A stretch of 64,000 bases of DNA from Candidatus Thorarchaeota archaeon. Lineage in GTDB: Archaea; Asgardarchaeota; Thorarchaeia; Thorarchaeales; Thorarchaeaceae. The notes below the pieces were generated by a model. It did no database searches and had not been told where the DNA came from. It saw only the letters and a list, made by a program, of their open reading frames with translations. Shown piece after piece: positions 45,979 to 61,051 of this stretch (positions are counted from its first letter, which is position 1; each line of letters begins with the position of its first letter). The position numbers and the translations under genes are program-made. The stretch lies in NCBI GenBank assembly GCA_029855935.1, contig JAGSHN010000016.1, positions 1 to 64,000 of the forward strand. Reading direction: 5' to 3'.

Positions 45979-47163
45979 ATGGCTGAGTACCTGAGGAAGC
46001 CCTCACGACGGATAACAAATATGATTGCCAAGGAACTTAGGCTGATAGTCAAGGACCGCGTTGCCATCTTTCTCATCTTCTTGCTGCCCGCTGCCCTGAT
46101 TGGAATGCTGTGGTACGTGTCGAACCAACAAGAGATGACTCTCGGCCCCCACGGTGGCGGATCCTCATCCTCGGAGGAGACCGTCACGACCAACGTCACG
46201 GAGGTCCAGACTGGTGTGGTTCTGGGCATCATCGACCGTGACACGACCCGTACGTATGATGGCCCCGATCTGTCAGAGAATTTCACTCAATATCTCAATA
46301 TGACCGTCGACGAATTGATAGTGTACAATGACACGGACGAGGCTGTCCGAGATCTGTACAGGGGGCGTATCGACGGGTTTGTCGTCATACCGGACGGGTT
46401 TGAGGCTAACCTGACCGTCAATGAGCCCACTTACGTCGAAGTCCATGTCGATGCCACCGACCTCACGACCCAGAGCACAGTTCAGGGCATTGTCCAGTCC
46501 GCTGTCGTGTGGTTCAGAGCCTCCAAGTTCTGGATACGGTCGGAAGTCTTCCCCGATCTACGTATCGAGTTCGCTCCGGAGGGCGACTTTGTGGAGACTA
46601 TATTTGGCGGCTTCATAGTCATCATATCCAGCTACCTTGGCATTGCAATGACCTCTGCACAATCCATTGTCGGTGACGCCCCTCTCCGACGAATGCTTCT
46701 CACCCCGACCAACCGCCTTGAGGTGATACTCGCAAAGGTCACAGCCTATGTCCTCATCGGCTTCTTTCAGTCACTGCTTCTCATCACGTTGTGGGTTGTA
46801 GCCTTCAATCTCAATCTCAGTACGGGCTTTGGAACACTCGTCATCATCATGAGTCTGTGTGCGCTCACAGGGTCGACGACGGGAATCCTGATCTCGTCAA
46901 TCGCGTCCACGCGCCTTCAGGCCAATCAGATGTTTCTGTTTGTCATGTTTGGCACAATGATACTCTCGGGCTTCTTCATCGACGTTGGCATACTTGACGA
47001 ATTCCTACCATTGAATCAGGGCCTGAAACTACTCATCGACACGGCCTTCAAGGGACTGTCTCTCCTAGAGGTGAGCACGCGAATCATCCGTCTGTTAGTA
47101 TTCTCAGTACTTGCCACCTTGGCCGCTACGGTGATCTTCTCCAAGAAACCGACGCTGGGGTGA
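45979..47163 (+). CDS. ABC-2 type transporter permease with large extracellular loop
   Basis: IAKELRLIVKDR, TM1, ~170-aa loop (GRIDGFVVIPDGF), LRRMLLTP...VILAK, LSGFF, six TMs. Confidence 0.9.
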   Translation: MAEYLRKPSRRITNMIAKELRLIVKDRVAIFLIFLLPAALIGMLWYVSNQQEMTLGPHGGGSSSSEETVTTNVTEVQTGVVLGIIDRDTTRTYDGPDLSENFTQYLNMTVDELIVYNDTDEAVRDLYRGRIDGFVVIPDGFEANLTVNEPTYVEVHVDATDLTTQSTVQGIVQSAVVWFRASKFWIRSEVFPDLRIEFAPEGDFVETIFGGFIVIISSYLGIAMTSAQSIVGDAPLRRMLLTPTNRLEVILAKVTAYVLIGFFQSLLLITLWVVAFNLNLSTGFGTLVIIMSLCALTGSTTGILISSIASTRLQANQMFLFVMFGTMILSGFFIDVGILDEFLPLNQGLKLLIDTAFKGLSLLEVSTRIIRLLVFSVLATLAATVIFSKKPTLG

Positions 47164-47181
47164 GCAACCAGAGGTGATCAT

Positions 47182-60300: not shown

Positions 60301-61051
60301 CGACGGTGTCACAGACTATGACGAGGTCATCACCCATGGCACCGCACCTGACAAGAGCGATACGGATGATGACAGACTGACCGACTACTTCGAGATCATG
60401 GTCTCACTGACTTCGCCGACGAACAACGACACTGATGGTGACGGGCTCAGTGATGGTGATGAATACCTCACGTATCATACAAATCCCAATTCCCCTGACA
60501 CGGACGGCGACGGTCTCAACGACCTCTATGAAGTACAGGTGGGACTCAATCCTCTGTCGGCGGACACTGATGGCGACTCTCTACCCGACAACATCGACTT
60601 TGACCCCCGCACCCACGTTGGTTACTATATCGCGGCGATCGCGAGCGGGTTCGTAGTTCTCGGTTCCGTCCTAGTCTATGCCCGGCGGAGGCGTGCTGTC
60701 GAGGAGTATGTCACGGAGGCCGAGCCGGCCAGTCCGGGACTGCTACCGGGTATGGAGGTCGCAGTGGAGTACAAGATCCGTGGTGGCAAGGTCGTCTTTG
60801 GGGTGGCAGTCCGCAACGGCTCGGAGATCACAATGCAGAACGTCCATATTGTGCTCGGCATTCCTGATCTCACCGACGCCATCAAGAGCCAGCTGGTCGG
60901 GACAATCGAACCGGGCAGTTTCTCTGTGGCTGAGATCGAGTTCGAACTCGAGCCTGGTGCAAAGGGCGAGCTTGTTGGAATGGTGGAGTATGATACGGAG
61001 GACGGCGAGCATCACGTGATCAACCTTCGTCCAGTGGAGATAATCGCGTAG
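54314..61051 (+). CDS. Giant (2245 aa) single-pass surface protein: FG-GAP-like beta-propeller, Ca-binding DxDxDG repeat stalk, TM, cytoplasmic beta-sandwich
   Basis: Signal peptide; GDVDGDSEDE and GDLDGDGASE blades; dozens of DTDGDGLxDxxE repeats; TM YIAAIASGFVVLGSVLVYA-RRRR. ATGA overlap with the upstream gene. Confidence 0.9.
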   Translation: MRPQYLFITVIAVCVILTIGAPQSRHPVAADMPLGVAPAVPSALAPYHVALVWSNNTGSQVVDVVIDNFDADVYLETAVVTQNGSLFLFDQDGSRLGSLSLGATPYEVIAVDADGVGTSEIGVATSAGALVVDGSLTVVTNITLPDAAHTIAAVALDGSTPDELVMGCDDGHLYAYGVNASQLWNYTSNAAVRLLVAGDVDGDSEDEMLIASSLRLLSLVDDTGAEVFNQTYPYSIKSLAIGDLVGTAQPELVTGDSGGRIRVLMANGTLITTLTEADSVTVLAVGELVTGAGSRVVAGLADGEMRVYNGSLSLLWNVTAVNSVRTITLADIGGQTNNQILMTEGDVAHIYNATGYSIYEQTLVGLSGAVAVGDLDGDGASEFALGLSSGAIQVYGRDSDRDRLADARETLIEGTAWNDRDTDDDGLWDGDEVLDYGTDPLSPDTDSDGLTDFQEVITYGTDPNDPDSDGDNLTDYQEVYLGTDPNRRDSDGDGLTDFEENNITRTDPLVTDSDDDGINDAQDDNDGDGLTNLQEVRITHTDPNDVDSDGDGTSDYYDDEDGDNLANWKEISVGSDPLDPDSDDDGLLDGEEVKTWKTSPLQQDTDGDQLTDFEEVRIVHSDPLSSDGDDDGLSDYDEYVTYGTLPLNPDTDNDSLLDGEEVNTYHTNATNPDTDGDGISDGDEVLVWRTDPNTNDTDLDGLSDFDEITVYHTNATLVDTDGDGLDDGAEILTWHTNATSVDTDGDGILDKDEVDRYPTFNATNAHTFNATVNDYDWDSDGDRLTNGQEIYLTRTDPLEADTNADGTTDDLEDSDLDGLTNYDELFITHTEPRTPDTDGDQVKDGDEVNVLGTSPLDTDTDDDSISDYDEDFDGDGLSNGVELYKTNTDPLDTYTHGVGQPRDDQYDGDGDGLPNWFEVERTGTDPLYNDTDDDGVLDGYEDLDNDNMTNLEELAAHTLPLDPDTDNDGLSDWEETQLSHTDPLDPDTNDNGISDAQDDEDGDGLTNLQEIRTYGTNATLWDTDGDGLRDGLEVDVGLNATNVDTDGDGLWDGYRDANHNGRYDKGEIGEDVDGDGVVDPGETDPLNSDTDNDGLEDGREVLIGTDPLDPDVDNDGLLDGEEVDTYGSSPLLNDTDGDGLDDYTEVRVTETDPTDPTTHAGVSDYDYDSDGDGLTNGAEIDQYGTSPGDMDTDDDGLSDYDEVVVYDSDPLANDTDGDGVDDFKEVQYGSDLNKRDTDGDGLDDYVEIELLGTNATLYSTYNNGTSDFDLDLDGDGLRNGVEIYGYGSNATNPDTDGDGLNDYVEVKLAGTSPTDRDTDDDGLSDYDEYTVYGTSPVRVDTDSDGLDDRYEISISLTSPLKWDTDGDQLSDYDELNTYGSDPNSADTDGDGINDKKEIDLGTNVNSNDTDGDGLSDWEEWKVYGTDPTEADEDNDGLNDKEEIEYGTDPQNPDSDFDSLTDGEEVNTYGTSPTDADTDDDKIADNDEIWNSHTSPTSADTDGDGIRDDLDDEDADGINNFLEIYLYETNCTLFDTDGDGLGDGYEIFTSKTDPRSADTDGDGLGDWEELFRYFSNPNSLDTDGDGLSDGDEALTYHTLLNNTDTDGDSLSDYDEIKVFETDALQWDTDGDGLSDGDELNKFNTDPLDADTDNDLLTDYQEIALGTDARDSDTDDDGLTDYQENNQTLTDPLRYSTQDNGISDADWDMDNDTLTNLQEISLTKTNPRLNDTDGDGIIDGADDEDRDLLTNYQECVLTKTDPRDKDTDDDGVSDYNDDEDGDGLSNGAEVWDYLSDPLKTDTDGDGLNDYDEVMTYLTQVRNPDTDNDLLPDGDEVHEYGTSPLLNDTDSDSLSDYEEVFLTDTDPTRNMTHSGILDSEWDSDYDGLSNYVELRVYNTTPLDPDTDNDDLLDGEEVQLGTDPLNSDTDNDSLLDGLEVRQYGTSPLLNDTDGDGLSDWREVTVFHTNATAVDTDGDWLSDYDEVYVYNTDPNDPDDDGDGVTDYDEVITHGTAPDKSDTDDDRLTDYFEIMVSLTSPTNNDTDGDGLSDGDEYLTYHTNPNSPDTDGDGLNDLYEVQVGLNPLSADTDGDSLPDNIDFDPRTHVGYYIAAIASGFVVLGSVLVYARRRRAVEEYVTEAEPASPGLLPGMEVAVEYKIRGGKVVFGVAVRNGSEITMQNVHIVLGIPDLTDAIKSQLVGTIEPGSFSVAEIEFELEPGAKGELVGMVEYDTEDGEHHVINLRPVEIIA
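55501..60610 (+). repeat. Intragenic thrombospondin type 3-like acidic Ca-binding repeats (~22-23 aa, with periodic ~13-aa extra units)
   Basis: Recurrent TxPxxxDTDxDGLxDxxE across ~1700 aa; DNA is diverged at synonymous sites. Confidence 0.88.

Follow-up and report, generated by a model that had tools for sequence, protein, structure and literature searches.

What does an archaeal cell do with an ATP-binding cassette (ABC) transporter whose genes are interleaved with that of a protease-like protein that has lost its active site? The question is raised by a locus of Candidatus Thorarchaeota archaeon (GCA_029855935.1), located in a stretch of 64,000 nt of contig JAGSHN010000016.1 (the window; coordinates are given on its forward strand). 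Five plus-strand genes span positions 45979-61051 and encode an ABC-2 permease (45979..47163, 394 aa), a first ATPase (ATPase-1; 47182..48861, 559 aa), a pseudo-subtilase accessory protein (48869..53326, 1485 aa), a second ATPase (ATPase-2; from 53319, or alternatively 53304, to 54317; 332 aa) and a giant type I surface protein (54314..61051, 2245 aa). The genes are separated by gaps of 18 and 7 nt and then by two overlaps: the start region of the ATPase-2 gene takes in the TGA stop of the subtilase gene (53324-53326), and an ATGA at 54314-54317 joins ATPase-2 to the giant gene. The open reading frames are as stated in the first-pass annotation, which had listed five tightly packed, co-oriented genes with these gaps and with overlaps at 53319-53326 and at the ATGA, and its proposal of one tightly coupled operon agrees with the junctions as read; the ATPase-2 start at 53319 is GTG, not ATG, GTG 53304 and TTG 53313 being two further candidates. 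Chance falls far short of explaining the arrangement: order and spacing repeat in every genome of the family that was examined. What the locus holds is a conserved genetic unit of an ABC-2 engine and a non-catalytic outer protein that carries a GIFT domain. To the further step, that the unit builds a complex similar to bacterial GldAFG in which the dead protease is the accessory subunit on the outside, we would give slightly better than even chances.

Related genomes are not independent of each other, and conservation was therefore counted by families (denoted f with a number) and by one contrast within a family (f9). The five-gene order is identical in 10/10 family loci and in the sister family, and in at least 37 species-level genomes, all from these two families, the N-terminal domain of ATPase-1, the C-terminal module of the subtilase and the cytosolic tail of the giant lie on one contig at constant spacing. 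A core consisting of the permease, ATPase-1 with its TrmB-like domain, ATPase-2 and the subtilase is present in at least nine further Asgard families, where the gene order is shuffled: permease, ATPase-1, subtilase, ATPase-2 in f12; two permease genes followed by ATPase-1 and the subtilase in f9 and f26; and a subtilase gene divergent from ATPase-1, permease and ATPase-2 in f21 (Freyarchaeota) and f27. The most distant confirmed loci are those of the Jordarchaeia/Freyarchaeota. Two markers of the core, the ATPase-1 N-domain (132/400 genomes of the phylum) and the subtilase C-module, were found in 80 and 75 of 85 genomes of f1, respectively, in 17 and 16 of 19 genomes of f12, and each in 5/5 genomes of f7, 6/6 of f21 and 3/3 of f22; neither occurs in f5, f14 or f20, and in f9 both are present in the same 4/135 genomes, all belonging to one genus. 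The co-conservation in related genomes that the earlier annotation had named as a check is found here as synteny in the family and its sister family and as a shared core beyond them.

This pattern bears on a rival explanation of the locus, namely that an ordinary efflux pump happens to neighbour genes for unrelated surface proteins. It would be in line with the observations that the ABC parts match generic families only and that in f7 the pseudo-subtilase gene lies apart from the ABC genes. We nevertheless consider it very unlikely, as the genes are translationally coupled at their junctions, the linkage survives at least four different gene orders, and the markers are co-present or co-absent across families, including the 4/135 genomes of f9. 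Few multi-gene membrane systems share with the core both restriction to Asgard archaea and conservation over several Asgard classes. The literature library that was searched yielded no paper on the core, in accordance with the first-pass annotation, which had not recognised a described system, and no paper joining Asgard archaea with GldG, the GIFT domain of IFT52 or site-1 protease.

The engine part is readily recognised. The permease matches ABC2_membrane_3 of Pfam at 100.2 bits (cut-off 31.6; E 1.7e-28) and consists of a first transmembrane (TM) segment, an extracellular loop of around 150 aa and five further TM segments. Its orthologues are 65-75% identical within the family; a sequence search of the PDB with the permease returned no relative. 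Both ATPases match ABC_tran (ATPase-1 97.7 bits, E 1.1e-27; ATPase-2 96 bits, E 3.8e-27) and in both the Walker A, Q-loop, signature, Walker B and H-loop motifs could be read intact from the sequence, so that Pfam and motif reading agree with the description of one permease and two different, intact ATPases. Both also match drrA (TIGR01188), which covers the full nucleotide-binding domain (NBD) and C-terminal domain of ATPase-1 with 177 bits and scores 178.6 bits on ATPase-2.

ATPase-1 differs by an N-terminal extension of about 245 aa ahead of its DrrA-like NBD, a tandem beta domain (47182..47916, plus strand) to which Regulator_TrmB of Pfam matches in 13/13 orthologues (best 1.7e-11). The matched part corresponds to the last beta subdomain of the TrmB effector-binding domain. 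Similarity between the two halves of the extension is weak (hhalign E 6.6e-5, probability 64%), and an internal duplication is a weakly supported reading of this alignment. The domain is well conserved, with a mean column identity of 65% among orthologues; a PDB search with its profile found no relative and a feature-based search nothing usable (best score 0.77). A complex prediction for this domain and the cytosolic domain of the giant scored 0.00, under the mark, a result that counts neither way on binding.

The protein encoded between the two ATPases is composed of a leader, a pro-region, a subtilase (S8) domain, a region of about 600 aa, a GIFT domain, an Ig-like domain, a TM helix and a helical tail. 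It has the topology of a type I membrane protein: an N-terminal hydrophobic leader and one C-terminal TM segment followed by a run of Arg residues, with a cytosolic part of about 70 aa. The S8 domain (49394..50263, plus strand; residues 176-465) matches Peptidase_S8 at 151.9 bits and aligns to the protease Tk-SP (3afg) with E 1.2e-41. In this alignment the Asp and His of the active site are retained, the nucleophilic Ser is replaced by Ala426 (GCC at 50144-50146) and the oxyanion Asn by Asp; the alignment with an active paralogue of 968 aa, which has all four canonical residues and served as an internal control, gives the same picture, as the earlier annotation of a dead subtilase would have it. 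Asp occupies the oxyanion position in 14/14 orthologues, whose nucleophile column holds A, T or S, and in the representatives of other Asgard families the nucleophile is A, G or L and the His often Arg or Glu.

The same was seen in a world-wide set of 28 alignable representatives, clustered at 50% identity. The nucleophile position is occupied by A in 10, G in 10, T in three, S in three, F in one and R in one, and Asp replaces the oxyanion Asn in 24/28; Asp, His and Ser occur together in only 1/28, and that one lacks the Asn. The 1485-aa subtilase is accordingly a pseudo-enzyme, and one that has been dead for a long time. With an active site that is dead and unconstrained throughout the 28 representatives, the protein would have been kept for binding and not for cutting. 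The family is thereby a clear natural example of a protease fold that has outlived its active site by hundreds of millions of years. The region of about 600 aa between the S8 and GIFT domains has no Pfam match.

Use of a subtilase fold in this manner has precedents. MycP of type VII secretion, the germinant receptor CspC and PCSK9 all employ it as a binding or stabilising subunit, and the mycosin is TM-anchored and part of an ATPase-driven membrane machine. The likeness lies in the non-catalytic role of the fold. The partners are different, these proteins have no GIFT domain, and the NCBIfam scores are far below the cut-offs: the best match of the 1485-aa protein is T7SS_mycosin with 120 bits (cut-off 278), and the match to the CspC pseudoprotease is weak.

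The C-terminal third of the pseudo-subtilase (residues 1040-1485) was modelled with AlphaFold2 from an alignment that included 14 orthologues (mean pLDDT confidence score 75, and 80-90 in the domains). In the model, a GATase-like domain is followed by a beta-sandwich, a TM helix and, on the cytosolic side, a pair of long helices, the three helices lying at 347-374, 384-409 and 415-443 of the model. These parts correspond to a GIFT domain of the GldG/IFT52 type (52115..52666, residues ~1083-1266, from model and profiles), a macroglobulin/Ig-like beta-sandwich (52667..52981, residues ~1267-1371, from the fold match) and a TM helix (~1386-1413) with a cytosolic tail that ends in GGV (53024..53323), all on the plus strand. 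In the tail, residues N395 and A399 (A1 numbering; full-length positions 1434 and 1438) do not vary, distant families included. Per orthologue, Pfam detects IFT52_GIFT in 14/14, ABC_transp_aux (the GldG family) in 13/14 with a best value of 5e-11, DUF4350 in 13/14 and MBTPS1_4th, weakly, in 6/14; the window copy is itself a weak example, both for ABC_transp_aux (E 0.012) and for DUF4350 and IFT52_GIFT in the Pfam scan. A profile of the family retrieves IFT52 from the PDB at 1.3e-12. By the modelled fold, an exhaustive aligner places IFT52 (5fms_A) first with Z 20.4 (root-mean-square deviation, rmsd, 2.1; 179 residues aligned), OST48 second with Z 17.1 (317 aligned) and residues 652-873 of site-1 protease (S1P; 8uw8_A) third with Z 15.8 (rmsd 2.5). 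The beta-sandwich resembles the MG domains of alpha-2-macroglobulin (Z 11.5, rmsd 2.1-2.3). Profiles and model together identify a GIFT domain of the GldG/IFT52 type, and the earlier suggestion of a GldAFG-type logic with a 'GldG-like' accessory part proves right at the level of the domain.

The parallel with the gliding-associated GldA, GldF and GldG of the Bacteroidota, and with the wider group annotated as 'ABC-type uncharacterized transport system, auxiliary component' (ABC_transp_aux of Pfam), is that an ABC-2 permease and an ATPase are combined with a membrane-anchored outer protein built around a GIFT core. The present system differs in being archaeal, in having two distinct ATPases, one of which has a TrmB-like domain, and in its accessory protein, a single-pass type I protein in which the GIFT domain is joined to a dead subtilase and the ~600-aa region as well as to an Ig-like domain and a helical tail. 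We propose that the core encodes an Asgard-specific ABC-2 (type V fold) transporter complex following this logic. The six-TM permease with its extracellular loop domain, encoded by one gene here and by two in some other families, would presumably form a homodimer, powered by the two different DrrA-like ATPases, presumably as a heterodimer. The TrmB-effector-like domain of ATPase-1 probably gates the ATPase in answer to a ligand in the cytosol or serves as a dock for a partner there. The membrane-anchored pseudo-subtilase, whose GIFT, Ig-like and TM module resembles OST48/Wbp1 and GldG, would be the obligate outer partner, placed by the permease loop on the outer face, where it may receive, hold or present what the ATPase cycle moves. 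The gene anatomy, the dead active site, the folds, the co-conservation and the phyletic co-occurrence are observed; a physical complex with this stoichiometry, the direction of transport, the substrate class and the roles of the cytosolic domains are what we infer from these features. The cargo would most plausibly be amphipathic and membrane-embedded, such as a lipid or a lipid-linked glycan, in view of the fold class. The calcium-repeat stalk of 2245 aa with its terminal propeller and, usually, a TPR protein would be additions of the Thorarchaeia, that is, lineage-specific partners or clients of the complex. If so, the locus defines by sequence a complex amenable to study, and one that links a GIFT domain genetically to its partner; the domain also occurs in GldG, OST48, S1P and IFT52.

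Several points weigh against this proposal. On the GldA equivalog model (TIGR03522; cut-off 402.6 bits) ATPase-2 scores 137.4 and ATPase-1 99.8 bits, and the GldF and GldG models of NCBIfam match neither the permease nor the 1485-aa protein at E <= 0.001. To our knowledge, neither the function nor the substrate of GldAFG itself has been established, so that the analogy carries no function, and the substrate class given above is a guess made from the fold class alone. One permease gene combined with two different ATPases is an unusual stoichiometry. Adjacency is not obligatory, since in f7 both parts occur in 5/5 genomes on separate contigs or far apart (L023/L024 versus L030/L036) and in f22 the core genes are dispersed. 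In f24 and f25, finally, the C-module is matched in genomes that lack the ATPase-1 N-domain.

Among structures of the PDB, Foldseek ranks chains of OST48/Wbp1 on top (6s7t_G, 7oci_G and 6ezn_G; E 1.7e-11 to 2.3e-10 over 366-413 columns), followed by the GIFT domain of IFT52. OST48 shares with the module the order of GIFT domain, Ig-like sandwich, one TM helix and cytosolic tail. The sequence profile retrieves no OST48 chain at E <= 10, eukaryotic OST48 being very divergent. The overall superposition is poor (rmsd 13-15 Å), which indicates that the domains match those of OST48 but their packing does not. The context is different as well: here the module forms the C-terminal third of a 1485-aa protein and lies beside an ABC transporter, not beside STT3, which is absent among the scanned proteins of the window, the only part of the genome in which it was looked for. 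Asgard homologues of WBP1 have been published only for the Heimdallarchaeia (PMC10307638).

The resemblance to OST48 invites a more specific version of the transporter proposal, in which the complex exports a lipid-linked glycan or glycolipid for surface glycosylation, the TrmB-like domain reading a cytosolic sugar in the manner of the carbohydrate-binding domain of Wzt and the OST48-like module handling the glycolipid outside. The ABC-2 fold class would fit such a role, as would the homology to the TrmB effector domain in 13/13 orthologues, although only the last beta subdomain is matched and not the whole sugar pocket; similarly, the top rank of OST48/Wbp1 over GIFT, Ig-like and TM parts has to be set against the missing match in sequence profiles. 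GIFT domains have been put forward as sugar binders (PMC7226087, citing Beatson and Ponting 2004), which would add to the case. The ectodomains of both large proteins are enriched in N-x-S/T sequons over their composition (42 versus 20 expected and 27 versus 8.7 expected), but such enrichment is to be expected of any archaeal surface protein, and no glycosylation gene is present among the scanned proteins of the window. On balance we regard glycolipid export as quite unlikely in this specific form.

Of the solved structures, IFT52 is the nearest to the GIFT domain, in sequence (1.3e-12) as well as in fold (Z 20.4). It differs in location, as IFT52 is a cytosolic protein of the intraflagellar transport complex and the GIFT domain discussed here is predicted to be extracytoplasmic. 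S1P (MBTPS1) is similar in architecture: this subtilase is a type I membrane protein whose GIFT domain lies between S8 and TM (PMC11231238), and it shares with the pseudo-subtilase the order of S8 domain, GIFT domain and C-terminal TM, with a GIFT fold match of Z 15.8. The pseudo-subtilase is set apart by being catalytically dead and about 430 aa longer, by an S8 domain closer to Tk-SP and subtilisin BPN' than to S1P, and by the existence of the 968-aa paralogue, which better fits the S1P layout. On the PDB, the S8 profile of the family scores 267.5 bits with Tk-SP, about 160 with BPN' and 129 with S1P, and the profile value of S1P for the C-module is not significant (0.08). A specific kinship of the S8 domain with S1P, which had been entertained, was rejected on the ranking of these scores; the lower value against S1P than against Tk-SP and the subtilisins is the reason for which the likeness is taken as shared architecture and not as kinship.

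The same genome (G000) encodes further proteins of this kind. The active 968-aa paralogue (P0008; contig C16, L104:5700-8606, plus strand) consists of a leader, pro-region, S8 domain with canonical Asp, His, Asn and Ser, beta region, GIFT domain, PKD-like domain, TM segment and short tail, an order and size that equal the layout of eukaryotic S1P; the matches of its GIFT domain to ABC_transp_aux, DUF4350 and MBTPS1_4th are weak. Orthologues of 970-1040 aa are present in most genomes of the family. A 657-aa protein combines S8 with a weak GIFT match (L105:4632-6605, minus strand), and an 836-aa protein matches IFT52_GIFT above threshold (32.4 bits; L106:4599-7109, plus strand); tblastn around the genes for these two detected no adjoining ABC genes.

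It is tempting to view the membrane-anchored S8-GIFT-Ig-TM family of the Asgard archaea, with its active 968-aa and its dead, ABC-coupled forms, as the prokaryotic kin of S1P and, by way of the GIFT-Ig-TM part, also of OST48/Wbp1 and the IFT52 GIFT domain; the operon would then preserve the ancestral context, that of an accessory subunit of an ATP-driven membrane transporter. We judge this scenario as a whole to be rather improbable. If the kinship with S1P or OST48 were true, it would add one more eukaryote-like membrane module with an archaeal past.

The giant protein has a leader, a beta-propeller, a stalk of around 1700 aa built of TSP3 repeats, a TM segment and a cytosolic beta-sandwich. 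It is again of type I, with an N-terminal hydrophobic leader, a C-terminal TM segment followed by an Arg run, and a cytosolic part of 121 aa. Both large proteins were earlier annotated as single-pass with cytoplasmic domains of about 75-120 aa; the single C-terminal TM segment holds, and the measured sizes are about 70 and 121 aa. TSP3_bac matches the stalk in 23 stretches (2.1e-134). The propeller (54446-55573) is best matched by BBS2_Mid of the ciliary BBSome subunit 2 (6.4e-14; 52 bits, cut-off 27), with weak matches to the propellers of BBS7 and ITFG2, the latter below threshold. The annotation as an FG-GAP/calcium-repeat protein is thus right for the propeller and the TSP3 repeats but not for FG-GAP, which remains below the Pfam threshold (19.6 versus 22.1 bits). 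The adventurous-gliding lipoprotein CglD (NF033765) was dismissed as an identity: the match passes its cut-off of 400 with 458.7 bits only because 15 TSP3 stretches are added up, and the best single stretch covers positions 109-312 of a profile of 1124.

Orthologues of the giant were found only in the family of the window and its sister family, and are absent in the other families that hold the core. By this distribution the giant is classed as an addition at the level of the order and not as part of the core. The first-pass annotation had made the adhesin part of an ATP-powered envelope machine that assembles, moves or signals through it. With the giant confined to two families, adhesin-directed action cannot be the general function, so that the operon, the dead subtilase, the GldAFG logic and the co-conservation stand from that reading and the adhesin as its general target does not. 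A secretion or processing system for the giant, of the type I or LapA-LapG kind, is brought to mind by a giant calcium-repeat protein that adjoins an ABC transporter and a protease-like protein. We take this to be highly improbable: the giant begins with a leader and is anchored by a TM segment near its C-terminus, a Sec-type topology; protein export is not a function of ABC-2 permeases; the active site of the protease is dead; and most families have the core without the giant. The topology and the dead protease led us to discard this reading.

The surface proteins next to the core vary. In f27 the region downstream of ATPase-2 encodes Big/PKD membrane proteins instead of the TSP3 giant (L032:6795-12563, minus strand), which suggests that the surface proteins paired with the core change from one lineage to another. 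In f12 the gene directly after ATPase-2 encodes a small GTPase of the Ras family of 174 aa (Ras 6e-48; L022:8348-8872 and L035:9104-9628, both minus strand).

The cytosolic tail of the giant (60686..61048, plus strand; 121 aa) is an Ig-like beta-sandwich in the AlphaFold2 model (pLDDT 87), with a mean column identity of 73% among orthologues. The appendage of gamma-COP (1r4x_A) leads the fold matches of the exhaustive aligner with Z 11.5; transglutaminase barrels, PDIP38/ApaG, the gamma-adaptin ear and the GAE domain of GGA follow within about one Z unit, and Foldseek gives E-values of only 1e-4 to 2e-3. The appendage is thereby tied with unrelated Ig-like sandwiches, and an adaptin/COP appendage identity is no more than one candidate among them. 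The profile of the tail also matches an internal beta-sandwich of a cytosolic protein of about 790 aa (E 1e-9 to 1e-13), and by this homology the tail is assigned to a family of Asgard cytosolic interaction domains. The ~790-aa protein has zinc ribbons, PCI/UFL1/DDRGK-like winged helices and a VPS28-like C-terminus, and occurs in 94/106 genomes of f9 and 9/9 of f26 (for example L107:2658-5030, plus strand, and L108:2929-5295, minus strand).

The tails bear on a different view of the engine, in which nothing is transported and ATP hydrolysis reshapes the pseudo-protease, and in the Thorarchaeia also the giant, in an FtsEX/MacB-like manner, the cytosolic tails coupling both sides in mechanotransduction or inside-out signalling. 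Conserved cytosolic domains do follow directly after the TM segment in both large proteins, and the extra cytosolic domain of ATPase-1 could dock them; moreover, pseudo-enzymes are often receptors, as is CspC, weakly matched here, and the core adjoins different surface proteins depending on the family (the TSP3 giant here, Big/PKD proteins in f27). However, the known mechanotransmitting ABC systems have the type VII (MacB/FtsX) fold and not the ABC-2 fold. ABC-2 systems such as Wzm/Wzt, TarGH and ABCA/ABCG are exporters of lipids or polymers, and the giant adhesin is missing from most of the families that hold the core. Mechanotransduction therefore appears to us an unlikely alternative to the GldAFG-like transporter, albeit one to be taken seriously.

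The surroundings of the five genes vary in their association with them. A gene for a cytosolic TPR protein (61108..62451, plus strand; 447 aa, TPR families) follows 56 nt downstream of the giant gene, the spacer has no oligo-T run, and an orthologue is found downstream in 8/11 loci that have the five-gene operon; it is probably the sixth gene of the same transcript. A look-up of sequencing runs listed no RNA data set that holds the locus; the one DNA holder listed is a metagenome from a hydrothermal vent, which may be its source. Upstream, a spacer of 256 nt with AT-rich boxes at both sides is common to the operon and a divergent gene (43371..45722, minus strand). The 783-aa protein encoded there has no Pfam match and no obvious TM segment in its translation. 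Its orthologue, 29-36% identical, is upstream in 9/10 family loci and absent from this position in the sister family, which would make it a neighbour kept within the family only and no more than a candidate member of the system. The remaining genes of the window are those of ordinary metabolism and one Ig-repeat surface protein, a 1761-aa protein with Big_13, Big_7 and PKD domains that is encoded at the window start (19-5304, plus strand) and is unrelated to the operon.

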